From sequence record NC_073038.1: 57,599 nt of DNA; one strand, 5' to 3'. This document shows positions 92 through 47,898 of the stretch, piece after piece. The position numbers and the translations under genes were made by a program. Each line of letters begins with the position of its first letter. Position 1 is the stretch's first letter. This DNA is from Pseudomonas phage AAT-1. The notes below the pieces were generated by a model. The model worked only from the letters and a program-made list of their open reading frames with translations, did no database searches and was not told the origin of the DNA.

Positions 92-1819
92 ATGACACGA
101 CCGACCGGCCCACAACTGCCGTTCTCCGACGAGCTGCACGCGGGCAAGTACCGCGCCGAGGGCGAGGGCTTCCGCGAGGCGATGAACCGCGTCGCCGCGG
201 GCCTCAAGGACGACGACGCCCACTTCCACTCCCTCCGCGACGTCCTCCTGGACATGCGCTTCATGCCGGCCGGGCGCATCCAGTCCGCCATTGGCTCCGG
301 CAAGAACACCACCCCCTACAACTGCTACGTCTCGGGCACCATCGCTGACAGCTACGTCGAGGGCGAGGGCTCGATCATGGAGCGCGCCACCCAGGCGGCC
401 GCGACCATGCGCATGGGCGGCGGCATCGGCTACGACTTCTCCACCCTGCGTCCGAAGGGCGACCTGATCGTCAAGCTCCAGTCCCGCAGCTCCGGCCCCA
501 TCTCCTTCATGGAGATTTTCGACGCGGTCTGCCGCTGCACCTCCTCGTCCGGCCACCGCCGCGGCGCGCAGATGGGCGTCATGCGTATCGACCACCCCGA
601 CATCTTCGAGTTCGTGCACGCCAAGCAAAACGAGCACTTCCTGCGCGGCTTCAACATCTCCATCGCCGTCACCGACGAGTTCATGGAGTGCAAGCGGGAC
701 GGCAAGCCATTCCAGCTGAAGTGGGGCGGGCGCGTCTACCGTGAGGTCGACCCCAACGAGCTGTGGGACGCCGTCATGCGCTCTACCTGGGACTGGGCCG
801 AGCCGGGCGTCCTGTTCATCGACACCATCAACCGCATGAACAACCTCTGGTACTGCGAGGAGATTGCCGCCACCAACCCGTGCGGCGAGCAGCCGCTTCC
901 GCCCTTCGGTGCCTGCCTGCTGGGCTCCTTCAACCTGGTGCGCTACCTCAAGCGCGACATGGCAGGCTGGTCCTTCGACTGGCACCAGCTAGCCGAGGAC
1001 ATCCCGGTCGTCGTCCGCGCTATGGACAACGTGGTGGACCGTGCGCGCTACCCGCTCCCGCAGCAGGAGCACGAGGCGAAGTCCAAGCGCCGGATGGGCC
1101 TGGGCGTCACCGCCCTGGCGAACGCCGGCGAAGCCCTGGGCCACCCCTACGGCTCGCCTGGCTTCCTGGACTTCACCCGTCGCGTGCTGACGATGGTGCG
1201 CGACGAGTGCTACCGCGCGTCGGCCCTCCTGGCCCATGAGAAGGGCTCCTTCCCGCTCTTCGACGCCGACCAGTACCTGGCGTCGTCCTTCGTGCAGACC
1301 CTGCCTGAGGACATCCGCGAGATGATCGCCGAGCTGGGCATCCGCAACTCCCACCTGACCTCGATCGCGCCGACCGGCACCATCAGCCTGTGCGCCGACA
1401 ACGTGAGCTCCGGCCTGGAGCCCGTGTTCTCCTATGGCATGGAGCGCACTGTCATCGACGAGGGCGGCCCCCGCAAGGAGCTCATCGAGGACTACGGCGT
1501 GCGCGTGCTCGGCGTCAAGGGCAAGCGCTCCTCGGAGGTCTCCGTGGCCGACCACGTCGCCGTGCTGGCGGTTGCCTCCGAGCTGGTGGACTCCGCGGTG
1601 TCCAAGACCTGCAACGTGGACTCGCGCGTCAGCTGGGACGAGTTCAAGCAGGTGTACGACCAGGCCTGGGAGCTCGGCTGCAAGGGCATCACGACCTACC
1701 GGGCGGACGGCAAGCGCGGCGGGGTCATCGTGGCGAAGGACGACGACACCGGCAAGGCCCAGGAGGAGGCCGCGTCGTGCCAGATCGACCCGGAGACCGG
1801 ACGCCGCAGCTGCGAGTGA
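92..1819 (+). CDS. nrdJ: Ribonucleotide reductase class II (adenosylcobalamin-dependent, NrdJ-like)
   Basis: 575 aa. Contains the NPCGEQ active-site region and a C-terminal CxxxxxxxxC pair typical of class II RNR. AAGGAG SD lies 8 nt upstream of the ATG. Confidence 0.8.
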   Translation: MTRPTGPQLPFSDELHAGKYRAEGEGFREAMNRVAAGLKDDDAHFHSLRDVLLDMRFMPAGRIQSAIGSGKNTTPYNCYVSGTIADSYVEGEGSIMERATQAAATMRMGGGIGYDFSTLRPKGDLIVKLQSRSSGPISFMEIFDAVCRCTSSSGHRRGAQMGVMRIDHPDIFEFVHAKQNEHFLRGFNISIAVTDEFMECKRDGKPFQLKWGGRVYREVDPNELWDAVMRSTWDWAEPGVLFIDTINRMNNLWYCEEIAATNPCGEQPLPPFGACLLGSFNLVRYLKRDMAGWSFDWHQLAEDIPVVVRAMDNVVDRARYPLPQQEHEAKSKRRMGLGVTALANAGEALGHPYGSPGFLDFTRRVLTMVRDECYRASALLAHEKGSFPLFDADQYLASSFVQTLPEDIREMIAELGIRNSHLTSIAPTGTISLCADNVSSGLEPVFSYGMERTVIDEGGPRKELIEDYGVRVLGVKGKRSSEVSVADHVAVLAVASELVDSAVSKTCNVDSRVSWDEFKQVYDQAWELGCKGITTYRADGKRGGVIVAKDDDTGKAQEEAASCQIDPETGRRSCE

Positions 1820-6124: not shown

Positions 6125-9100
6125 ATGGCCAAGACCGCGAACGAGGAGATTCTCGACGCTACGGTCCGCCACCAGATCAAGCTCCTGCGCTTCTCGCAGG
6201 GCGAGGCCAACATGGCCGCGTCCCTGTTGGCGGAGAGCGACGCGGAGCTGGTGGCGCTGATCCAGGCGGGCAACCTGACCGAGGCCAGCGAGGCGCGCCT
6301 GCGTGCCCTGCTGGCTGACGTGCGACGGCTCCGCTCCACCGTGGCCGAGCGTATCCAGTCGGAGCTCGAGGGCGACATGGAGGAGCTGGCGGCCACCGAG
6401 GCCGAGTGGGAGACGGCCATGCTGCAGGGCGCGACGCCCGTGGCTATGTCGTTCGCCTCCGTGCCTGTGACAACTCTCAAGGCCCTGTCGGCATCGCCCA
6501 TAAATGGTGTGCCGCTCGAGGGGTGGCTTGGCAAGATGGCGGTGAACGACGTCTCCCGTATAGAGCAGCAGCTACGCCTAGGCATCCTGGCCGGCGAGAC
6601 AAACGACCAGCTTGTGGCGCGCATCCGCGGCACGAAGGCGAACGGGTATAAAGACGGGGTGCTGGACATCACTCGGCGCGAGGCCGAGATGATCGCGCGC
6701 ACCGCGACCAACCATGTCTCGACGTCCGCACGGCAGGCCACCTGGGAGGCGAATGCCGACATCATCAGCGGCGTTCGGTGGGTGGCCACGCTCGATGGGC
6801 GGACCTCGCCTGTGTGCCAGTCCCGCGACGGCGAGGTATACTCCATCGACCGGGGACCGCGTCCGCCCGCGCACCCGAACTGCCGTTCAACCGTGGCGCC
6901 GGTGCTTGCCGGTGAGGAGATTGTCGGTGAGCGCCCGACCATCACTGACACCCGCACTCGTGCCCAGCGCGAGGTCGACTTCCGCGCCGAGGCGCGCGAG
7001 GCGGCAGGCGATAAGTGGAAGGGCATGAGCGAGGCGGAGCGCCGCGCGGCCATCAAGGCCCGCCGGGACAAGTGGGCTGACGAGAACATCGGCCAGGCAC
7101 CCACCTCCACGAACTACGAGAAGTGGCTACGCGGGCAGTCCAAGGAGTTCCAGGACGACGTACTTGGCAAGGGCAAGGCCCAGCTTTTCCGCGACGGCAT
7201 GCCTCTCGACAAGTTCGTGGACGAGAAGGGTAAACCGTACTCGCTGCAGCAGCTCAAGGCCGAGCTGGAGGGCGACAAGCTCAACGTGGTGCAGCCGGGC
7301 GTCGGCCTGAAGGCCAAGTCCCTGCTGCAGCAGGGCCTCTCCAACCAGCAGGTGCTTGACCAGATCAAGGCGGAGTACCCTGACGCCAGCACGTCGATCG
7401 CGTCGATCGCGTCCTACAAGTCGGAGCTGAACAAGGCCGGCGCACTGAGCCTGCCGGACGTCGGCAAGGTGCCGACCGGGGCCCTGGCGCAGGCCAAGAA
7501 CGTCAAGGCCGTGGTGGAGAACCTGGAGCAAGCACTACCGGCTAACGTCAAGCACGCCGTTGGCGGGCAGTGGTCCACGGTGGTCGAGGACCTGGACGGG
7601 GCGCCCGGGGTCTACGGCTACTACCAAGCCGGCAAGGGCGTGACGCTGAGCGGCAAGAAGCTGGCGGCGGTATCGACCGCGCAGGCCCAGCAGGCCGTGG
7701 CGCACGAGCTCGGGCACCTGCTGCACAAGCAGCACGACCTGCTACTCCCTGACGAAGTTCTGGCAGCCTTGAAGGCCTCGGCAAAGGGCCTGCCTCCGGA
7801 TGCCCGGAAGCTCTACTCGTACTATCTGAGCAGCGCAGACGAGCTCGTCGCTGAGGTCTACGCCCAGGCGCTCAGCCCGAGCGCGCTGACATCTCAGGGC
7901 CTGAGCGCCTTGGAGTTCAACAAGGCCTTTGGTCCTGCCATCGAGGCGGCCAAGAAGGCGATGGCGGACAAGTTCCCGATGCCTGCCGCGGCGGCCAAGA
8001 CGCCGCTGCCAGGCGGCCCCGTGTTACCCTTCGAGGTAGCTGGCAAGCACACGACGGTCGGCTCGCTGTCCAAGGCTCTGCTGCAACAGGGCATGCCGGA
8101 CGAGCAGGTGCTGCAGTCCGTGCTCGCTGAGTTCCCTGAGGCCAAGACCAAGCTGGCGTCCATCCAGAGCTACAAGTCGCAGCTCAAGAAGGAGGGCCTA
8201 CTGCCCAACAAGGCCTCCGGGCCGGTGGTGCAGCCGAAGGTCATCCCGGACGTGGCGCCAGTACCTGCCAGCGCAGAGGTAGCGGCAGCAGCGCCCGACG
8301 TCGTGGCCGCAGTTCCCTCGGCCGTGCAGCTGACGGCGGCCGAGCTCAAGGCCAAGGGGATGGAGCTACTCAAGCAGGGTGTGCTGGGCAACTCCGACGT
8401 GGCGACCACGCTCGACAAGATGTTCCCGCTTAACGCCGGGCAGGCGAAGCCCAGCACTGTGGCGACCTGGAAGAGCCTGTGGAAGAAGGCCGACCCGGAG
8501 GGATACGCGAAGGCCAGCGCCCTTGCGGAGAAGTCCACGGTCAAGGCAGCAGTCTCCGGCCCGGTAGCGCCGCCTAAGCTGCTAGGCCAGAAGCTTGGCG
8601 CCGTGTCGACTAAGGCCCTGGAGAAGGTCAAGTCGGTCGTCGCGGCTGGTGGCTCGGTGGACGAGGCGTACGCCGCCATGAAGTCGGTCTTCGGCTCAGT
8701 GCAGGAGCCCGGCGCCTCTGACCTGCTGGAGCTGGCCAAGTACCAGGTCGCGTCGGCCAAGGCCGCCGGTAAGCCCTACTTGGATGCCGCCTTCACTACG
8801 CCCAAGGGCTACGTCGCAAACCCCAAGATCGAGAGCTACGTCGCAAACCTGGACGCCAAGGGCAAGGCCGCGCTCGAGGCCTACAAAGAGGCCAAGGCCA
8901 AGGGCTTTGGCGTCGTCAAGACCAACAAGCTGGTGAAGGCCAAGGCGGGATACGAACCGTCGGCATCGGCCAAGGTGAAGTTGAAGGAGGCGGCTGACTA
9001 CGAGCTGACCAAGGCGGGCACGCCGATCCTCGAGCCGTACAGCCCGGCGGCCAAGGCAGCTCAGAAAGCCTCGCCGTCCGTCGCGCCGATACCGCCTACC

Positions 9101-9733
9101 GAGAAGGTGGACCTCACGCCAGTCCGTCCGGCTTCTACCCCACGCGACGGGCTGCCACCGCCTCCACGCTTCAACTCCCAGCAACGCGCTGCAGGAGTTC
9201 GCAAGTTCGCCGGCCGGGTCGAGACGTCCACGCTCAACTCCATGAACGCGCAGCAGCAGCGGCTCGGACTGCCCGAGCTAACGGCGGAGGAGGCGGCCGC
9301 GATTCGGTCGTATACTGGCAACACGTACCGGGCGCTGAACGACGCGCTCCGGTCGGGTAGGTACGCGTCAGACATGCACCTGCAGGCCTACGTAGATGCT
9401 GCCCAGCATGGACTCGCAAAGATGCCGAAGTTCGTGGGTCGGTCAGCCCGCGGTATGTCGTTTGGGGAGGCAGAGCTCAAGAAGGTGCTCGCGACCTACC
9501 GCAAGGGAGCTGTCGTCGAGGACTCGGCCTTCGTGTCGTCCTCGTACGGTGAGCAGGCGGCCTTCGGGGGCAATGTGTTCCTGCAGATCAACGGGAAGAC
9601 AGGGGTCAATATCTCCAGCTTCTCAAAGTACGGCGGCGAGCGTGAGGTACTGTTCATGCCTGGCACCCGCTTCAGGGTGGACGACGTGGTGCAGACCAAT
9701 GGTAAGTACGTGATAACTGTGACGGAGGTATAA
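6125..9733 (+). CDS. MuF-like (SPP1 gp7 family) minor head protein fused to a C-terminal C2/C3/VIP2-type mono-ADP-ribosyltransferase toxin domain
   Basis: 1202 aa. Mu-F motif VATLDGRTSPVCQSRDGEVY...HPNCRST. Middle part carries 3 copies of a roughly 35-aa helix-loop-helix module. C-terminus has LTAEEAAAIRSYTGNTYRALNDALR (NAD-binding helix), FVGRS (Arg), FVSSSYG (STS) and GGEREVLFMPGTRFRV (ExE ARTT loop plus EVL.PrGt.F.V). Confidence 0.8.
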   Translation: MAKTANEEILDATVRHQIKLLRFSQGEANMAASLLAESDAELVALIQAGNLTEASEARLRALLADVRRLRSTVAERIQSELEGDMEELAATEAEWETAMLQGATPVAMSFASVPVTTLKALSASPINGVPLEGWLGKMAVNDVSRIEQQLRLGILAGETNDQLVARIRGTKANGYKDGVLDITRREAEMIARTATNHVSTSARQATWEANADIISGVRWVATLDGRTSPVCQSRDGEVYSIDRGPRPPAHPNCRSTVAPVLAGEEIVGERPTITDTRTRAQREVDFRAEAREAAGDKWKGMSEAERRAAIKARRDKWADENIGQAPTSTNYEKWLRGQSKEFQDDVLGKGKAQLFRDGMPLDKFVDEKGKPYSLQQLKAELEGDKLNVVQPGVGLKAKSLLQQGLSNQQVLDQIKAEYPDASTSIASIASYKSELNKAGALSLPDVGKVPTGALAQAKNVKAVVENLEQALPANVKHAVGGQWSTVVEDLDGAPGVYGYYQAGKGVTLSGKKLAAVSTAQAQQAVAHELGHLLHKQHDLLLPDEVLAALKASAKGLPPDARKLYSYYLSSADELVAEVYAQALSPSALTSQGLSALEFNKAFGPAIEAAKKAMADKFPMPAAAAKTPLPGGPVLPFEVAGKHTTVGSLSKALLQQGMPDEQVLQSVLAEFPEAKTKLASIQSYKSQLKKEGLLPNKASGPVVQPKVIPDVAPVPASAEVAAAAPDVVAAVPSAVQLTAAELKAKGMELLKQGVLGNSDVATTLDKMFPLNAGQAKPSTVATWKSLWKKADPEGYAKASALAEKSTVKAAVSGPVAPPKLLGQKLGAVSTKALEKVKSVVAAGGSVDEAYAAMKSVFGSVQEPGASDLLELAKYQVASAKAAGKPYLDAAFTTPKGYVANPKIESYVANLDAKGKAALEAYKEAKAKGFGVVKTNKLVKAKAGYEPSASAKVKLKEAADYELTKAGTPILEPYSPAAKAAQKASPSVAPIPPTEKVDLTPVRPASTPRDGLPPPPRFNSQQRAAGVRKFAGRVETSTLNSMNAQQQRLGLPELTAEEAAAIRSYTGNTYRALNDALRSGRYASDMHLQAYVDAAQHGLAKMPKFVGRSARGMSFGEAELKKVLATYRKGAVVEDSAFVSSSYGEQAAFGGNVFLQINGKTGVNISSFSKYGGEREVLFMPGTRFRVDDVVQTNGKYVITVTEV

Positions 9734-11276: not shown

Positions 11277-11303
11277 GGGGAGCCAACCGGCTCCCCTTTT
11301 CTC
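11277..11303. terminator. Bidirectional intrinsic terminator between scaffold (+) and NADAR (-) genes
   Basis: ggggagcc-aacc-ggctcccc followed by ttttctc on +. The hairpin also sits directly 3' of the minus-strand gene. Confidence 0.6.
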
Positions 11304-11811
11304 ATTCCGCGTGCGGGCAGGTCGAGCACGACATGGGCAGCATCTGCTCTCGCAGGTCAGTCAGCACCTGCCCAAGCCAGTTACGCCCGCGCCAGCGTTC
11401 ACGGTTGTGCACGCGCGGGTCGTCCTCCGCCAGGCCGACTCCCCAGATGACGTCGGTCGGGCTGGCCTCGACGAGCACGGTGCCTTCGGTGAGCAGCAGC
11501 TTGGCACGTAGCTTCGGGTCGCTCGAGAACTTCGCGAGGCTGGCCCGCATCACGACATCGCGCGCCACGGTCTCCCAGGTCCGGACGTCGAACCCGCGCA
11601 CCAGCTTGCCAAGGCGCTTCTGCTGCGCCGGGTCGTCCGTCGACATGATGGCCCTCAGGGCAGCGTCGTCCCCGAACAGCCGGGCCTTCTGAGCCATCAT
11701 GTACTGCTCGGCGCAGGAGTAGGTCACGCCGTCTACTACCATCGGGGACGGGTACCACTGGCTAAACACGCCGCCGTAGAACGGCGTGAACTTTTCACTA
11801 TTGTTGGGCAT
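11302..11811 (-). CDS. NADAR (YbiA-like, DUF1768) domain protein
   Basis: 169 aa. SCAEQYMMAQKARLFGD plus ...DVIWGVG... match the YbiA/NADAR fold signature. Confidence 0.75.
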   Translation of the reverse strand: MPNNSEKFTPFYGGVFSQWYPSPMVVDGVTYSCAEQYMMAQKARLFGDDAALRAIMSTDDPAQQKRLGKLVRGFDVRTWETVARDVVMRASLAKFSSDPKLRAKLLLTEGTVLVEASPTDVIWGVGLAEDDPRVHNRERWRGRNWLGQVLTDLREQMLPMSCSTCPHAE

Positions 11812-12753: not shown

Positions 12754-13299
12754 TCAGATAGTTGTCAGGGCCATCCACTCGGGCTGATCGCCCAGGCGGT
12801 ACTCGGCGATCGCGGACTTCTCCACGCGGTAGTAGGCGCGGTAGGCGGCCACCGGATCGGCTTGGCGGTACTGCTCGGGCATCGCGAGGGCGAACGGCGT
12901 CATGGCGTCGGGCCGATCGGCGCAAGCTTTGACGAGCGCACGGGGCGGGTTGCGCAGGACGGGCAGCACGTCCCATGTCTTGTGGCGCTTCTTGGCGCAG
13001 TCGCCGTAGCGGCGCTGGTACTCGTGCAGGAGGGCTTCGAGCAACGAGCAAGTCCAGCGGTAATTGCCGACGGCCTCGCGCACCCACACGGCGCACGGGT
13101 GGTTGGCGTGGGTGGGGTGGTACACGCGCTGGCCTCGCACCTCGAAGCAGTTGCGGGCCTCAGAGTATACGGCCTCACCAAAGTGGGCGTGGGCCGTGCT
13201 GAGCAGCTGGGCCGTCTCGAGCACCATCTTGACGACGTGCTTGTCGCAATGGGCTCGGGCGGCCAGCCGCGGGTTGCGGTCTAGCACGAACAGGTTCAT
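12754..13299 (-). CDS. Hypothetical protein (conserved His/Cys: AHCDKH, HPCAVW)
   Basis: 181 aa with protein-like composition. No confident family assignment. Confidence 0.45.
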   Translation of the reverse strand: MNLFVLDRNPRLAARAHCDKHVVKMVLETAQLLSTAHAHFGEAVYSEARNCFEVRGQRVYHPTHANHPCAVWVREAVGNYRWTCSLLEALLHEYQRRYGDCAKKRHKTWDVLPVLRNPPRALVKACADRPDAMTPFALAMPEQYRQADPVAAYRAYYRVEKSAIAEYRLGDQPEWMALTTI

Positions 13300-34407: not shown

Positions 34408-34484
34408 GGGAGCCCCCTCTAGCAACTTTTTTTTAGACCAGCAAAACATAAGGGGAGACCGAAGTCTCCCCTTATGATATTAGC

Positions 34485-34853
34485 CTATCTATATGGAGTT
34501 GAGTCAACTGCGCGAGCCAGCAGGTCTGCGGGCCGGTGGTCCGAGGGCAGCACTGACATCGAGGCCAGCGTCTCCTCTGTGACGCCCTCCTTGACCAGCG
34601 CCGTCTTCGAGCCCGGCACCAGGTACCGACGGACATCTCGCCCCTTGCCGACGCGCACGTAGAGCCACACATTGCCCCCACACTTCCAGCGGCGTCGGTG
34701 CCACACTACCTGGGACTGCCGGACGTCGAAGTCCAGCCGGCCGTCCCTGGCGGGCCGGTCGCAGCCCTTGAGCTCGAGCTCGAAGTACCGGCCCTTCCAG
34801 CAGCCGTCGACGTCCGGGTCGCCCTCGCTCACCAGATTCTCGACCCGGCGCAT
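34485..34853 (-). CDS. VRR-NUC domain nuclease (PD-(D/E)xK)
   Basis: GDPDVDGCW...YFELELK...SQ..W....GG.V.YV matches VRR-NUC. Start taken at MRRVENL after a GAGGGG SD. Confidence 0.5.
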   Translation of the reverse strand: MRRVENLVSEGDPDVDGCWKGRYFELELKGCDRPARDGRLDFDVRQSQVVWHRRRWKCGGNVWLYVRVGKGRDVRRYLVPGSKTALVKEGVTEETLASMSVLPSDHRPADLLARAVDSTPYR

Positions 34854-34903
34854 GTGCAGCCCCTCGACGCCGCGCAGGCCGTCGCGGAGCCACTCCCACA
34901 GTC

Positions 34904-35359
34904 TCACCTCGCGGGCCACTGCTGGTCCTCCCTGTACAGCTCTATGACCAGGGCGTCGTTCTTCACAAAGCCCCACGGCTCCTTCGGCAGCAGCTCGCGC
35001 AACGGCGCAAACGGTATGCCCTCGCCCAGGACGTGCTGGGTGCGGTGGATGAACGCCCTGTGGACCAGGCCGAGGCGCAGGGCCTCCATGGCGATAGTCG
35101 GGCCGCCGATCAGCCAGGCCTCCCGCATTAGGCGGCCGGCCATGTCGAGCGGCAGAGTCGAGCGGCTCAGGTGGACGATGTCCCGGCCAGGCAGCGGAGG
35201 CATGAGCCTGGCGGTCTGCTTGCCGGCCAGGAGCGGCTCACCGTCCGACAGGGTGAGCAGGCGGAAGGCGTACTTGTCCGCTGGGCCTGTCCAGCGCATG
35301 TCGTCGTCGGGCCCGGAGGCCAGAAAGCCGTCGCGGGAGACGGCAAGGATGAGCTTCAT
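34904..35359 (-). CDS. folA: Dihydrofolate reductase
   Basis: 151 aa from MKLILAVSRDGFLA after a GAGGAG SD. DHFR-like core with ..LIGGPTIAMEAL... The track ORF's N-terminal extension is GC-artefact-like. Confidence 0.7.
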   Translation of the reverse strand: MKLILAVSRDGFLASGPDDDMRWTGPADKYAFRLLTLSDGEPLLAGKQTARLMPPLPGRDIVHLSRSTLPLDMAGRLMREAWLIGGPTIAMEALRLGLVHRAFIHRTQHVLGEGIPFAPLRELLPKEPWGFVKNDALVIELYREDQQWPAR

Positions 35360-35363
35360 GGTG

Positions 35364-35828
35364 TCACTCCTCGTTGTATGAGATGATGTGGACCCCGCGC
35401 CGGAGCAGCAGCCCATCGGCCTCGGCCCAGGACTGTCCCCACCGCGCGTGGCCAAAGTCGGGCCGCTCGGGCACCACCAGCCGGGCCACGCCGGCCTCGA
35501 CGATCTTGGTGGCGCATGGCAGGCACGGGTAGCGGGTGACGTACAGCGAGCATCCACGCGGGTTGAACGGGGCCTGCCGGAGGCAGTTGTCCTCCGCATG
35601 TCTCATGTGGGCGTTCTTGAAGTCGCGGTCGGCCAGCAATGACGGCAGGTCGGGCACGTCCTCCGGGAACCCGTTGAACCCGAAGGACACCTGTCGCCGA
35701 TCGGCCGACGCAAGGACGGCGCCGACCTTGCGGTCTGGGTCCTTCGACAGCAGGGCAACCTGCCGCGCCAGGTCCATGAAGAACCTGTCCCAGTACCCCT
35801 GGCTCCGCTTGATCGGCGCCTCGTCCAT
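35364..35828 (-). CDS. dCMP deaminase (cytidine/deoxycytidylate deaminase family)
   Basis: HAEDNCL ... PCLPCATKI zinc-binding H-x-E / PC-x-x-C signature. Start is ATGA-coupled to the upstream stop. Confidence 0.75.
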   Translation of the reverse strand: MDEAPIKRSQGYWDRFFMDLARQVALLSKDPDRKVGAVLASADRRQVSFGFNGFPEDVPDLPSLLADRDFKNAHMRHAEDNCLRQAPFNPRGCSLYVTRYPCLPCATKIVEAGVARLVVPERPDFGHARWGQSWAEADGLLLRRGVHIISYNEE

Positions 35829-36244
35829 CACTCCACGACCTCCGTCAGCGCCTCAGCAAGTTCGAGCACGACCTCGTCACCCCAGGTGTTCTTGGCGGCG
35901 TTGTAGGCCCACACGACGAGCCGGCAGTTCCCCATAGTGTAGCCGAGGGCCGAGTCACGCCGGTCAATCGTCGGACTCCACGGGTTGGCCTTGGTGAAGG
36001 TGCCAAGGTCATAGTCAAACGGCAGGCGTGAGACCTCGCATTGCCCGCGGTCCAGACGCTCGCGCACCCACTCGACGGTCAGGTCGAACTCAAGGCCCCT
36101 CTGCCGGGCCCGGCTGCGCGCCTTGTGGAACAGGTACTGGGCGGGGTTGTTCTCCTTCCAGGCCTGTCTGGACTCGCGACTGCGCTCGGGGTGGCGCTCT
36201 CGCCATCGCCGGGCATACTCCGCCTTCTCTTCCTTCGTAGCCAT
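35828..36244 (-). CDS. HNH/endonuclease VII-like protein (putative)
   Basis: 138 aa from MATKEEK. C-terminal ..WSPTIDRRDSALGYTMGNCRLVVWAYNAAKNTW resembles HNH-family nuclease cores. Weak call. Confidence 0.35.
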   Translation of the reverse strand: MATKEEKAEYARRWRERHPERSRESRQAWKENNPAQYLFHKARSRARQRGLEFDLTVEWVRERLDRGQCEVSRLPFDYDLGTFTKANPWSPTIDRRDSALGYTMGNCRLVVWAYNAAKNTWGDEVVLELAEALTEVVE

Positions 36245-36310
36245 GCGCCCCTCCAAAATAAAAATGCAACCCGTATATCGTACGGGTTGCATCAGGGCAA
36301 CAATGCCAGC

Positions 36311-37207
36311 TTACTCGATGACCTCGGGACGAGGATTATAGGCCGGCCACGTCAGCTGCTTGGCCTCCTCGGCGTAGCGGACCACGTAGTCGTCAGGGGC
36401 GCGCTCGACCTGCGAGAGCGTCCAGCCCGGCAGCTGCAGCGCGGGCACGACGGGCTCCTGCTTCATCATCTCGACCGTCAGGTCCCAGTGGCTCTCGTAC
36501 AGGTGCGCGTGGGCCAGGGTGACGTGCATGACGCCAGGACGGAGGCGGAGCTCGTGGGCCACGGCGTCCATCAGCAAGGCATGGCCCATGACATCGTACG
36601 GCAGCCCAACGAACACGTCGGAAGAGCGGATGAAGAAGCTGGAGTGCAGCTCCCCGTTGAACACACTGAAGGTGAACGACGCGGGGCAAGGCACATTCCG
36701 CTGGCCGAGTGCGCCGAGCCCGTCCTCCGCCGGGTCCCAGGCGGAGACGTAGCAGCGGCGATCGCTCGGGTCCTTGCGCAGCGCCTCGACAGCGAGCCTG
36801 ATCTGGTCACGGCCGAAGTGGTTGCGCCAGCGATAGCCGTAGGCGGCCTTGACACCCTCGAAGGTGGGGTTGACCTGCACCTTCTCGGGCTGGTGCTCGC
36901 CGATCCGGCGCAGGTCGAGCTCGTCACCGCCAAGAGGCTCGACAAACTTGTCCCACAGTGGCGCGTACTTGCGGATGAAGGTCGCGTCCTGGGTGCCCTG
37001 CAGGTACCACGCGACCTCTGCCGCAGCAGACTTCGGGAAGGTCTTGCGGAAGCCGACCGTGGGCAGCATACCGTCGGACAGGTCCACGCGGAAGGACGTC
37101 CCGCCGCGGCCGACCTTCACACGCACGCCGGTGCGGGCGTTAGTCTCGACGTCGCCGGAGAACACCCAGGCCACGATGGCCCCGTAGGCGTCATAGAAGG
37201 GCACCAT
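36311..37207 (-). CDS. Thymidylate synthase family enzyme (ThyA-like; Asp at the Asn177-equivalent position)
   Basis: Aligns along its full length with E. coli ThyA: DQI..L..DPxxRR.xVSAW, catalytic PC (NVPCPASFTF), RSSDVFVGLPYD vs E. coli RSCDVFLGLPFN. ATGA-coupled start. Confidence 0.75.
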   Translation of the reverse strand: MVPFYDAYGAIVAWVFSGDVETNARTGVRVKVGRGGTSFRVDLSDGMLPTVGFRKTFPKSAAAEVAWYLQGTQDATFIRKYAPLWDKFVEPLGGDELDLRRIGEHQPEKVQVNPTFEGVKAAYGYRWRNHFGRDQIRLAVEALRKDPSDRRCYVSAWDPAEDGLGALGQRNVPCPASFTFSVFNGELHSSFFIRSSDVFVGLPYDVMGHALLMDAVAHELRLRPGVMHVTLAHAHLYESHWDLTVEMMKQEPVVPALQLPGWTLSQVERAPDDYVVRYAEEAKQLTWPAYNPRPEVIE

Positions 37208-38004
37208 CACTCCACCTCCGCCGTGGCAAGCGAGGCCTGCGACAGGCGACCATCGCGCATGGCCTCCGCGTAGTAGGTCGCATAGTTGATGAGGTCCTCC
37301 ACGGTGTCCAGGATGCCCTCGAAGTTAACCGGGCGACCGGTCTGCATGGCCTTGAGCAGCGACTGCAGGCGCAACTCCTTGGTGTGGATCATGTGGGCAT
37401 AGGACAGGTGTCCGAAGGGGAAGTAGGCGTCACGCCCGCCGGGGACGTCGTTGTAGTCCTTGCCCTTGGCCTCGCGCAGCTGCTGCAGGCGGAGCCACAC
37501 CGGGCTGAGGGCCTCACGCTGCGCCTCCTGATCGCGCAGGCGACGGAGGTCCGCGAGGTCGGCCAGGGTGAAGCCCAGGAGCCATGCGTGGTCCGGAGGG
37601 GTCCAGCCCTCGGGCTTGACGGCGTCGTGGCCCTTGGAGCCGGGGCGCTTGGACAGCTCGCCGCGCTCCTTGCCCATATTCGCGCGCTGCACCTCGTCCA
37701 TGACGGCAGTTGCGGGCACGCCCATCTCGATGAGGCGGCCGAGGGCAAAGTAGACAAGGTCGATGAGCGCATCCGCCGCCTCGAGCACGTCGCCCGCCTC
37801 ACAGGCCCCGTTGAACTCGGTCAGCTCCTCCTGCATTGCCGTGTTGGCCCACTCGAGGCGCTGCCCGTCCATGATGGACGGCTCGGCCGGGATGGGGAGG
37901 GCGCAGACCTCCAGGTTGAACTGCTCCACCTTGGCGAGCATGCGCGCTGCCACGGCTGCTGCAAACGCCTCGCGGGGGCTGATGTTGTCGGTTAGGTCGT
38001 GCAT
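37207..38004 (-). CDS. MazG/HisE-like nucleoside triphosphate pyrophosphohydrolase with an unassigned C-terminal domain
   Basis: QEELTEFNGACEAGDVLEAADALIDLVYFALGRL is the EExxE...E..D all-alpha NTP-PPase motif. 265 aa. Confidence 0.55.
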   Translation of the reverse strand: MHDLTDNISPREAFAAAVAARMLAKVEQFNLEVCALPIPAEPSIMDGQRLEWANTAMQEELTEFNGACEAGDVLEAADALIDLVYFALGRLIEMGVPATAVMDEVQRANMGKERGELSKRPGSKGHDAVKPEGWTPPDHAWLLGFTLADLADLRRLRDQEAQREALSPVWLRLQQLREAKGKDYNDVPGGRDAYFPFGHLSYAHMIHTKELRLQSLLKAMQTGRPVNFEGILDTVEDLINYATYYAEAMRDGRLSQASLATAEVE

Positions 38005-38088: not shown

Positions 38089-38316
38089 CTAAACGCTGAC
38101 GCCCTCGGCCCGTAGGATGCGGCGGACGGAGCAGCGGCAATTCTCGAGGGCGCGCCAGTCGCTCGGGGTCTTGGCGCAGGAGTAGGAGAACTTGCGGCCA
38201 CCAAGCTCCCACTTGACCTTCACGTGCTTGCGGCCGACGTGGACGGAGTACTCCAGGCCTGCGGCCTCGAGCACGGTGCCCACGACGTCGGACTCCTGTC
38301 GTCGGGCCACGGTCAT
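38089..38316 (-). CDS. Hypothetical small protein
   Basis: 75 aa ORF. Confidence 0.35.
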   Translation of the reverse strand: MTVARRQESDVVGTVLEAAGLEYSVHVGRKHVKVKWELGGRKFSYSCAKTPSDWRALENCRCSVRRILRAEGVSV

Positions 38317-39308
38317 TCCCCCTTCTTGGCCCGCGGCTGCTTTGCCCCGAAGACCACGTGGCCATCTGGGACGATGAGGCGGGCCATCGCACTGTCCTCG
38401 CTCAGCTCGTACCCAAGCCCGTTCTCCTTGTTGATGGTGAACAGGTGGGACAGCACGGCGGAGCGGTCCAGGTCCAGCTTGGCCATGGCCTCGGCGATGG
38501 GGAAAAACCCCGACACGAACATGCGGGCGACCGTGGCGCGCTTGCCCGGCTCAGGGATCGGCTTCAGGGCCTCCACGACGACGGGCTTGCCGCTGGTGCG
38601 CTTCCTGGGCTCGGGCGAGCCCTCTGGGCGCTCTGGCTTGGCGGCTCGGACGGGGCGCTCTGGCTCCACCCAGGCGAACAGGTCGAAGCCCTCTGGCACG
38701 ACCAGCCGAGCGCAGTCGCTCATCAGCTCGTAGCCGACGCCGTGGTCCTTGTTGAGGGTGAACAGGTGAGATAGCACCCCGGACCGTGTCAGGCCGAGAC
38801 GGGCCATTGCCTCGTGCAGAGACTGGGGCTCCTCGTGCATGAAGAAGCGCGCCACGTCGGCCCGCTTGCTGGATGGGTTGCACGGGCGGAGAGCCGCCTC
38901 GTCCACCTGCTTGCCGCCGCGAGCCTTGTTCTCGTCGCGCTTCGCCGGGTCCGGCGGTGGCGGCAGGAACTTTGGCACCGGCTGGCCGAGCTCGGTCAGC
39001 ACGAGGGCGGCCACGCCGAAGTCGCGTTGGAACCCAAGCTTGACGGCCTCCTCCCACGCTTGGTTGATGTGGTCAGCCAGCTTCTCCGGCGTCACCTCCA
39101 CGTCGACGGCCGAGGCCAGCTCGCCGCAGCGGTTGTTGACCTGGTAGGCCTCAAGCGTGAATGGGCTGAATATAGTGGAGCGCTTGTCGCCGGGGATGAT
39201 GACTGCGTGCCCGTGACCGCTGGTGGGAGGGTCGGTTATCTCGTACTTGTGCTTCCAGTAGTTCGGGGCGCCACCTCGGACGAAGTAGATGCGGGCGAAT
39301 CGGATCAT
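38313..39308 (-). CDS. Hypothetical protein with internally duplicated ~55-aa C-terminal modules
   Basis: ATG at 39308 after a CAGGAG SD. The two repeats SLHEAMARLGLTRSGVLSHLFTLNKDHGVGYELM... and IAEAMAKLDLDRSAVLSHLFTINKENGLGYELS... are clearly homologous. Confidence 0.45.
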   Translation of the reverse strand: MIRFARIYFVRGGAPNYWKHKYEITDPPTSGHGHAVIIPGDKRSTIFSPFTLEAYQVNNRCGELASAVDVEVTPEKLADHINQAWEEAVKLGFQRDFGVAALVLTELGQPVPKFLPPPPDPAKRDENKARGGKQVDEAALRPCNPSSKRADVARFFMHEEPQSLHEAMARLGLTRSGVLSHLFTLNKDHGVGYELMSDCARLVVPEGFDLFAWVEPERPVRAAKPERPEGSPEPRKRTSGKPVVVEALKPIPEPGKRATVARMFVSGFFPIAEAMAKLDLDRSAVLSHLFTINKENGLGYELSEDSAMARLIVPDGHVVFGAKQPRAKKGE

Positions 39309-39410
39309 GCTGTACTCCTGGCGGTACAAAGAGAAGAGGGACGTGCCTTTCGGTCACGTCCCTCATCTTACTGCCCGGGGCCAGCCCCGTGGACCATCAT
39401 CTTCCCGCGA

Positions 39411-47071: not shown

Positions 47072-47368
47072 TTATCCCGAGGCGGGCCTGGGTCGCGGAC
47101 CGTCGATCGACCCCGAGTCCGCCAGCTCTGCCAGGACGTCGGCGTGGCACGGCCTCGGCTTGCACCAGCAGGCCAGCACCCTGCCGCGCAGCTCCGGCAG
47201 CCTGGCAAGCATGTCGGGGCGCGACAGCACCATCGCCCTATACTTGGCGATGACCTCGCGGCGCGTGCCGTCGACGCCCACGTGGAACGGGTTGCCCCAG
47301 AACGACGTCCGATCGACCATCAGGTCGTAAGGCTCGCCGCTCCGACGGTTGATGACGCGGGTCACCAT
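47072..47368 (-). CDS. DUF4326 family protein
   Basis: 98 aa from MVTRVIN. FWGNPFHVG...CWCKPRPCHADVL matches DUF4326. Confidence 0.55.
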   Translation of the reverse strand: MVTRVINRRSGEPYDLMVDRTSFWGNPFHVGVDGTRREVIAKYRAMVLSRPDMLARLPELRGRVLACWCKPRPCHADVLAELADSGSIDGPRPRPASG

Positions 47369-47898
47369 CCGCCAGCGATCCGCTCGAGCTCGGCCATCAG
47401 CTTGCGAGTGACCGTGGGGTCGATCGTCAGCCCGCTGAACTTGGGCTGCATCTCGATTGCCACAAGCTCGCGGTGCCGCTCCTCGTTGAAGGGCACGGAC
47501 GGCACGAGGTACTCCCAGGCCGCCCGCGCGCCTATCGGGTCGAACAGATCCTCGAATGGCAGATGCAGCCCCACGATCGAGTCGAGTAGCATGGCGTCGG
47601 CCGGGGACACAGGAGGCATACCGACGGCCCTCATGGACTCGATGACCTCGGCAGGCTCGCGGTGCAGTACCAGCTTGCGGGCGGGGTGATCGTTGAGCCA
47701 GTCGGTCCAGCGCCACACGCCGGTGCAGGACACGCCCACGACGCGACCGGGGGCGCGTGCGGGCAGCTCGCGATCCCAGTCCTCGTAGTGGCTCGTGTAC
47801 AGCGGGTCGTGCACGCAGTGGACCGAGTCGGTGGTGAGCCAGTTCGACGCCCAGGTCGTCGCGGACCTGGGCAGGGCTATGACCATGAAGTCCAGCAC
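47362..47898 (-). CDS. Stf0-like sulfotransferase-fold / P-loop protein (putative)
   Basis: N-terminal MVIALPRSATTWASNWL resembles the 5'-PSB (PKSGTTW / PRSGST) motif of sulfotransferases. Weak call. Confidence 0.35.
   Translation of the reverse strand: MLDFMVIALPRSATTWASNWLTTDSVHCVHDPLYTSHYEDWDRELPARAPGRVVGVSCTGVWRWTDWLNDHPARKLVLHREPAEVIESMRAVGMPPVSPADAMLLDSIVGLHLPFEDLFDPIGARAAWEYLVPSVPFNEERHRELVAIEMQPKFSGLTIDPTVTRKLMAELERIAGGW

Follow-up and report, generated by a model that had tools for sequence, protein, structure and literature searches.

We find that the thymidylate synthase (TS)-family gene on the minus strand at 36311..37207 of Pseudomonas phage AAT-1 (NC_073038.1; the 57,599-nucleotide stretch analysed here is the window) very probably encodes a deoxycytidylate C5-methyltransferase of the type known from the Xanthomonas phage Xp12, in which case the virion DNA would carry 5-methylcytosine (5mC) in place of cytosine by way of the pathway proposed below. 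From the present analysis this conclusion draws on sequence, signature residues, predicted fold, orthology and synteny, and from the literature it draws on what the Xp12 enzyme does and on how the DNA of Xp12 and of the Pseudomonas relative PaMx74 is composed. The same activity and DNA state would extend from these two phages to AAT-1, and the substrates of the neighbouring MazG-like and deaminase proteins are predicted in the same manner.

36311..37207, minus strand: TS-family gene, predicted deoxycytidine monophosphate (dCMP) C5-methyltransferase (5-methyl-dCMP synthase); PF00303 match, alignment and orthology.

The open reading frame (ORF) specifies a protein of 298 amino acids (aa), with an ATG at 37207 (alternative GTG at 37210) and a stop at 36311..36313, that matches the Pfam family Thymidylat_synt (PF00303) with E = 2.7e-42 and, in the PDB, T4 td TS (4e-27) and E. 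coli TS (~1e-23). A HMMER alignment with T4 TS sets AAT-1 GLPYD opposite GLPFN, and a MAFFT alignment with E. coli ThyA and T4 gp42 places the Asp of GLPYD in the same column as E. coli N177 and gp42 D179. The register of this alignment is sound, because gp42 E60, C148 and D179 fall at the numbers given for them in the literature. In the 298-aa protein the N177 equivalent is D205 (D177 hereafter) and the catalytic Cys is Cys174. The catalytic residues of ThyA are retained (R21, E58, W80, Y94, R126/R127, C146, R166, S167, D169, H207 and Y209), as is the C-terminal tail that closes the folate site (..RPEVIE versus ..APVAI in E. coli), which gp42 lacks; Pro occupies the H147 position, Asn stands at –3 from the catalytic Cys, and a 4-residue insertion precedes this Cys. 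Pairwise comparison gives 29% identity to E. coli ThyA (1.4e-26) and ~18% to T4 gp42 (0.003), and all eight ThyA models of NCBIfam score under their cutoffs (TIGR03284, 104.8 versus 108.35 bits; NF002497, 110 versus 327). An AlphaFold2 (AF2) model of the protein has a predicted local distance difference test score (pLDDT) of 94, and the top 50 Foldseek matches to this model are all ThyA (E ~1e-21 to 1e-19), among them 1njc, the L. casei N229D enzyme with dCMP. Confidence in the model is low (pLDDT 58-69) only in a loop at aa ~91-112 (36880..36940 in the window) that varies in length and in which Xp12 is ~10 residues shorter; the phiH2 and PA_LZ02 proteins have 287 aa versus 298 in AAT-1.

In biochemical work on this family, Asn177 excludes dCMP, and an Asn-to-Asp change turns an enzyme acting on deoxyuridine monophosphate (dUMP) into one acting on dCMP (Liu & Santi 1992; Hardy & Nalivaika 1992; Graves et al. 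1992, as cited in PMC8670742). Positions 177 and 147 best separate cytosine-modified from unmodified viral metagenome contigs (PMC8670742), and at each of them the AAT-1 enzyme is in the 'modified' state; a published residue code similarly assigns D177 to a dCMP substrate (PMC13326640). The AAT-1 enzyme would bind and activate dCMP instead of dUMP owing to Asp in place of Asn177 and Pro in place of His147. We followed these residues in the 120 nearest proteins of a 5.8-billion-sequence collection, 54-93% identical to the query, and in the 150 best matches from a no-index HMMER scan of 1.84 billion 50%-cluster representatives, 135 of which were scorable. D177, D169 and the Asn-Val-Pro before the Cys are present in 120/120 of the nearest homologues, and the Pro after the Cys in 119/120. 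In the second survey D177 occurs in ~130 of the 135 scorable representatives, mostly together with N(–3) and P(+1), and the 150-match list reaches canonical LPPCH...N enzymes only at its foot, at E ~1e-25. The Asp is thus not a sequencing accident, given its presence in both surveys, and the AAT-1 protein is placed by its residues in a clade, both large and deep, that is marked out by the N(–3)/P(+1)/D177 triad.

Orthology to the Xp12 enzyme, as judged from our comparisons, constitutes the strongest argument for a dCMP methylase. The DNA of this region is 96% identical to that of phiH2 and 92-93% identical to those of phiH1 and PaMx28, AAT-1 is classed by its sequence as a Pamexvirus-type Pseudomonas phage (Bradleyvirinae, Mesyanzhinovviridae), and the TS-family protein is 98% identical to its counterpart in PaMx28, 91% to that in PaMx74 and 74% to that in Xp12 (over 298 aa). 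Xp12 virion DNA contains 100% 5mC and no cytosine by liquid chromatography-mass spectrometry (PMC7653180), and the Xp12 TS homologue, together with the T4 deoxynucleoside monophosphate (dNMP) kinase, gives rise to 5-methyldeoxycytidine (5mdC) in E. coli, an activity reported for the Xp12 enzyme and metagenomic relatives only (bioRxiv 10.1101/2024.12.05.627091). According to the same preprint, cytosine is wholly replaced by 5mC in PaMx74. The DNAs of PaMx28 and PaMx74 are resistant to restriction enzymes (PMC6469090), and those of the Xp12 relatives DLP4 and AXL1 likewise resist restriction enzymes with cytosine-containing sites (PMC9206674, PMC6469090); the AXL1 paper calls the genetic mechanism unknown (PMC9206674), and the papers on both phages read the cassette as ordinary synthesis of thymidine monophosphate (dTMP) (PMC9206674, PMC6469090).

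The remaining features in and around the cassette, together with the ribonucleotide reductase (RNR) encoded at the start of the window, are as follows.

38313..39329, minus strand: orf338, conserved (PHROG 11422).
38089..38316, minus strand: orf75, from the cassette comparison.
37207..38004, minus strand: MazG/PRA-PH-type nucleoside triphosphate (NTP) pyrophosphohydrolase, two-domain, all-alpha (PF01503, 2.6e-14).
36263..36293, minus strand: terminator-like hairpin, 13-bp stem followed by TTTTATTTT, directly past the TS stop and before the endonuclease GGAGG.
35828..36244, minus strand: free-standing HNH/endonuclease VII-like endonuclease, 138 aa, with its own GGAGG and an ATG at 36244 (PHROG 3322 'endonuclease', 3e-45).
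35364..35828, minus strand: zinc-dependent dCMP-deaminase-family enzyme, 154 aa (PF00383, 3e-16).
34904..35359, minus strand: divergent dihydrofolate reductase (DHFR), 151 aa (PHROG 13578 'dihydrofolate reductase', 2.6e-71).
34485..34976, minus strand: orf163, last gene of the cassette, ~140-163 aa, true start probably internal (PHROG 2165, 7e-43).
34447..34476, minus strand: terminator-like hairpin closing the operon, 13-bp stem and T-run, from a hairpin scan.
92..1819, plus strand: class II (adenosylcobalamin-dependent) RNR NrdJ, deoxynucleotide supply (TIGR02504 NrdJ_Z, 5.7e-151, 504 bits, cutoff 400; PF02867, 2.5e-101).

In order of transcription on the minus strand these are orf338, orf75, the MazG-like gene, the TS-family gene, a hairpin, the endonuclease, the deaminase, DHFR, orf163 and the closing hairpin. 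A preliminary description of this DNA had the TS-family gene joined to its neighbours by ATGA junctions and the deaminase gene next to it; we find instead that the MazG-like stop and TS start, and the endonuclease stop and deaminase start, both overlap by one base in TGATG, and that the endonuclease gene and a hairpin intervene between TS and deaminase. The MazG-like neighbour and the class II RNR that it named are borne out by the matches given above, and its DHFR neighbour is recovered by PHROG 13578, with a match to Pfam DHFR_1 that falls under the cutoff (20.4 bits against 25, 4.6e-4). What it called a dCMP deaminase does belong to that family by PF00383, but the dCMP role is set aside here in favour of an Xp12-type deaminase of 5-methyl-dC nucleotides.

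The order MazG-TS-deaminase-DHFR-orf163 is syntenic in phiH1, PaMx74, Xp12, the Rhodobacter phage RcRudolph and the Roseobacter phage RDJL Phi1, and two metagenomic contigs, as well as the Achromobacter phage Axy14, have the same order minus DHFR. Between AAT-1 and Xp12 the identities are 59% for the MazG-like protein, 74% for TS, 65% for the deaminase, 45% for DHFR and 73% for orf163. At the other end of the cassette, orf338 is also kept along with it in Xp12, PaMx74, RDJL Phi1, Axy14 and RcRudolph, and its product contains two helix-turn-helix-like segments (..MARLGLTRSGVLSHLFTLNKDHGVGYEL.. and ..MAKLDLDRSAVLSHLFTINKENGLGYEL..). The last gene, orf163, always closes the cassette (Xp12, PaMx74, phiH1, RcRudolph, RDJL Phi1 and Axy14); its product shows, by eye, a PD-(D/E)xK-like FELELK motif, and the labels of its counterparts vary among 'recombination protein U' (phiH1), 'nuclease' (RcRudolph) and helicase. 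A resolvase function is possible; a nuclease that acts on unmodified DNA is a more speculative option.

The endonuclease is absent from the site between TS and deaminase in phiH1, PaMx74, Xp12, RcRudolph, RDJL Phi1, Axy14 and the two metagenomic contigs, and among 50,697 phage records it is common only to PaMx28 (97.6% identity). Its further matches are to phrog_1035 (endonuclease VII, 9e-20) and an HNH family (1.5e-11). We take it to be a mobile insertion that stands outside the pathway, because the syntenic relatives lack it and only PaMx28 shares it; by its sequence it is probably a homing endonuclease gene.

The deaminase matches human DCTD (3e-15) and the PBCV-1 dCMP/dCTP deaminase 7fh4 (6e-12) in the PDB, and H77, A78 and E79 (HAE), P101, C102 and C105 (PCxxC) and W130 are invariant in our alignment. 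W130 corresponds to Xp12 W128, which has been proposed to contact the 5-methyl group (PMC12088426). The Xp12 enzyme converts 5-methyl-dCTP to dTTP, and thymidine arises from 5-methyl-dC nucleotides in that phage (Wang & Ehrlich 1982; Kuo et al. 1982, as cited in PMC12088426 and bioRxiv 10.1101/2024.12.05.627091); more generally, deaminases in cis with D177 TS genes prefer 5mC substrates (bioRxiv 10.1101/2024.12.05.627091). The AAT-1 deaminase is thus most likely, by prediction, an Xp12-type 5-methyl-dCTP/5-methyl-dCMP deaminase that makes thymidine nucleotides, not a supplier of dUMP. AAT-1 has only one TS-family gene, so that 5-methyl-dCMP likely comes from a single folate-dependent enzyme and is partly converted to thymidine nucleotides by the deaminase.

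The MazG-like protein has a helical-bundle fold with an acidic metal motif, EExxE...ExxD, in which E59, E60, E63, D78 and D82 are invariant. Its C-terminal half forms a strongly conserved helical domain that matches DUF1599 weakly (Nmad1, 'nucleotide modification associated domain 1'; E = 0.056); a tandem duplication of the two halves is unsupported, as hhalign of one half against the other gives a probability of 0.1%. PRA-PH is among the top domains found beside deaminase and Asp-type TS genes in modified metaviromic contigs (bioRxiv 10.1101/2024.12.05.627091), and from this context the AAT-1 protein is probably a dCTP (and/or dUTP) pyrophosphatase that serves dCMP supply and cytosine exclusion. 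In the case of DHFR, the homologues of AXL1 and DLP4 increase trimethoprim resistance experimentally (PMC9206674, PMC6469090).

We then consider the product. In the residue code, an acidic residue at the L143 position admits water to the methylene intermediate and gives a hydroxymethyl rather than a methyl product, a bulky hydrophobic residue there gives the methyl product, and D169N marks a 5-hydroxy-dCMP synthase of the RB69 gp48 type (PMC13326640). Owing to the 4-residue insertion, the L143 equivalent in AAT-1 has two candidates, L168 or N172 (299-aa numbering), where gp42 has D141 and D145; the ambiguity is harmless to the conclusion because neither candidate is acidic. By these criteria the AAT-1 enzyme is not a 5-hydroxy-dCMP synthase, since D169 is kept, nor is it gp42-like, since it has no acidic L143 equivalent and keeps the C-terminal tail. 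This tail, the co-transcribed DHFR, the ThyA-like AF2 model and the greater similarity to ThyA than to gp42 favour a reductive methyl transfer that produces dihydrofolate. Pfam and PHROG scans of the window ORFs, and the phiH1 annotation, reveal no S-adenosylmethionine-dependent C5 methyltransferase, TET/JBP dioxygenase, glycosyltransferase or second TS/ThyX, so 5mC would arise ahead of replication and would be the end product. The preliminary description had proposed a ThyA homologue with Asp for Asn177, directed to dCMP and transferring a methyl rather than a hydroxymethyl group. The PF00303 match and the alignment with ThyA and gp42, which puts Asp in the 177 column, agree with the first part; D177, its fixation in the clade and the Xp12 orthology (74%) and synteny support the second; and the third gains from D169, the lack of an acidic L143 equivalent, the tail and the activity of the Xp12 orthologue.

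Several observations weigh against a dCMP methylase that brings about full replacement. The W83 equivalent is Phe, and the –3 residue is Asn and not the bulky hydrophobic residue of the published methyl rule, which for this reason gives no positive 'methyl' prediction here. Among solved structures the MazG-like protein is closest to DR2231, a dUTPase, and neither the window nor the MazG-like protein shows similarity to the T4 dCTPase gp56. A dNMP kinase was looked for in the phage and none is recognisable. The endonuclease insertion and its hairpin could lower the expression of the deaminase and DHFR. As to DNA composition, we found no nucleoside analysis of AAT-1, PaMx28, phiH1, phiH2 or PA_LZ02 in the published literature, and the preprint cites no supporting data for its statement on full 5mC in PaMx74 (bioRxiv 10.1101/2024.12.05.627091).

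Set against these points and the evidence above, three other accounts of the locus deserve comparison. An ordinary TS would have the deaminase convert dCMP to dUMP, TS convert dUMP to dTMP, DHFR carry out recycling and the MazG-like protein act as a house-cleaning dUTPase, with canonical DNA as the outcome; the full ThyA fold, catalytic residues and tail fit this account, the deaminase-TS-DHFR trio serves dTMP synthesis in T4 too, the kinship of the MazG-like protein to the dUTPase DR2231 points the same way, and it is the interpretation that the DLP4 and AXL1 papers themselves give. We consider it scarcely credible, as it must contend with an Asp at the Asn177 position that is fixed clade-wide, scores below the NCBIfam ThyA equivalog cutoffs, an Xp12 orthologue that yields 5mdC in a phage whose DNA lacks cytosine, and the resistance of PaMx28, PaMx74, DLP4 and AXL1 DNAs to enzymes with cytosine in their sites. 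It is also highly improbable that the enzyme acts on dCMP to give another C5 product, either 5-hydroxymethyl-dCMP (gp42-like) or 5-hydroxy-dCMP (RB69-like), possibly modified further. Asp177 is common to gp42, MilA and the 5-hydroxy-dCMP synthases, and the –3 residue is polar (Asn) and not Leu; but D169 is kept where 5-hydroxy-dCMP synthases have D169N, neither L143 candidate is Asp or Glu where gp42 has Asp at both, the tail missing from gp42 is present, and a co-transcribed DHFR is needed only if the folate is oxidised. Similarity to gp42 is moreover far below that to ThyA, the AF2 model matches ThyA and not gp42 or MilA, the phage scans turn up no glycosyltransferase, kinase or TET gene, and the 74%-identical Xp12 enzyme gives 5mdC.

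A relaxed enzyme that methylates both dCMP and dUMP, with a conventional dCMP deaminase alongside and partial replacement by 5mC, has a small chance of being correct. Engineered N177D/N229D thymidylate synthases retain part of their dUMP activity, no other TS gene is present in the phage, and the endonuclease insertion parts TS from the deaminase. On the other side, replacement in Xp12 is 100%, Xp12 thymidine stems from 5-methyl-dC nucleotides via the 5-methyl-dCTP deaminase according to the 1982 studies as cited above, and the methyl-contacting Trp proposed for the Xp12 deaminase is conserved in AAT-1.

With an Xp12-type dCMP methylase as the preferred reading, the pathway would run as follows. 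The upstream, translationally coupled MazG-like enzyme probably cuts dCTP, and perhaps dUTP, to the monophosphate, which would both feed the methylase and exclude cytosine from the DNA. The methylase would transfer the methylene of 5,10-methylene-tetrahydrofolate to C5 of dCMP and reduce it with the folate hydride, to give 5-methyl-dCMP and dihydrofolate, and the co-transcribed DHFR would recycle the latter. 5-Methyl-dCMP would be raised to the triphosphate by kinases that are not recognisable in the phage, and the family A DNA polymerase would incorporate the 5-methyl-dC nucleotide, to place 5mC where cytosine would stand and to block restriction. The downstream deaminase would convert some of the methylated nucleotides to thymidine nucleotides, such that a single folate enzyme may supply both 5mC and thymine. 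With respect to the kinase step, a phage-induced 5-methyl-dCMP kinase activity in Xp12 was reportedly described by Wang, Huang and Ehrlich in 1982. DLP4 has an annotated 'dNMP kinase', but as a 65-aa ORF this is not a credible one.

A more speculative set of proposals, which we hold only tentatively and regard as doubtful when taken jointly, would extend this scheme: that the MazG-like protein is a dCTP pyrophosphatase that spares 5-methyl-dCTP, and hence a new specificity class unrelated to gp56; that the 5-methyl-dCMP kinase resides in an unrecognised conserved protein, e.g., the P-loop protein at 47362..47898; and that Asn(–3)/Pro(+1) is a second natural determinant of dCMP methylation that the rule equating a hydrophobic L143 position with methyl has missed. 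The protein at 47362..47898 (minus strand) has 178 aa and a sulfotransferase-like 'IALPRSATTW' seen by eye; it matches PHROG 10855 'hydrolase' and has no Pfam or NCBIfam match. The phiH1 record splits its counterpart across the genome ends, as 'similar to sulfotransferase' and 'NTP hydrolase'.

Comparison with characterised systems places AAT-1 closest to Xp12, with which it shares the NVPCP...RSSD...GLPYD signature, the ..PEVIE tail, the gene order and the subfamily Bradleyvirinae; it differs in host (Pseudomonas versus Xanthomonas), in the length of the TS loop and in having the endonuclease and hairpin insertion. For the Xp12 relatives AXL1 and DLP4 the literature gives a class Ia NrdAB, whereas the AAT-1 RNR is the class II NrdJ. 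E. coli and L. casei ThyA and their N177D/N229D mutants have the same fold, catalytic Cys/Glu/Tyr/Arg set and tail, and presumably the same reductive, dihydrofolate-producing transfer, but in contrast to the mutants the AAT-1 Asp is natural and is joined by H147P, W83F, the 4-residue insertion and Asn(–3). With T4 gp42 the AAT-1 enzyme shares the superfamily, the D179 equivalent and, by prediction, the dCMP substrate, as well as NTP pyrophosphatase and deaminase partners in the phage; gp42, however, has D141/D145 before the Cys and no tail, does not oxidise folate and makes 5-hydroxymethyl-dCMP, and T4 gp56 is unrelated to the AAT-1 MazG-like protein. The AAT-1 deaminase resembles the 5-methylcytosine-selective deaminases mSCD-B5 and Xp12 (DCTD family) in its HAE, PCxxC and Trp and in its position in cis to a D177 TS gene and a PRA-PH gene; by this resemblance it would also be selective for 5mC, on either the mono- or the triphosphate.

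Three further loci in the window lie outside the cassette. A 1202-aa Mu-F-like head protein with a C-terminal ADP-ribosyltransferase domain is encoded at 6125..9733 on the plus strand (PF01129, 6e-15; PF03496, 1e-11), and a NADAR domain protein at 11302..11811 on the minus strand (PF08719, 3e-49), which is misannotated as 'GTP cyclohydrolase II' in phiH1; the two may constitute a virion-delivered ADP-ribosyltransferase paired with an ADP-ribose-processing enzyme. The 181-aa product of 12754..13299 (minus strand) gives a weak, below-cutoff match to a pyrimidine-dimer DNA glycosylase (PF03013, 3.3e-4) and matches PHROG 624 at 3e-59.

The system is the Xp12 pathway in a Pseudomonas phage and hence not a new mechanism; nor is the idea new, because that pathway is known. 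Xp12 biochemistry dates from the 1970s-1980s and the Xp12 genome from 2020, and the enzyme activity, with PaMx74 as a second example, was described more recently (bioRxiv 10.1101/2024.12.05.627091). The assignment corrects a systematic misannotation, as the GenBank records of the relatives label the gene 'thymidylate synthase' throughout, including that of Xp12 (QNN97214.1), and it bears on two related-phage papers that left the basis of restriction-resistant DNA open or invoked ordinary dTMP synthesis. As a source of tools, the cassette would offer a dCMP methylase and a deaminase selective for 5mC, of a kind already used in methylation sequencing. If their DNA is fully 5mC, candidate phages for P. 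aeruginosa therapy would resist most type II restriction enzymes, would be predicted to be sensitive to modification-dependent nucleases (McrBC-, MspJI-like), and would pose trouble for some sequencing and cloning methods.

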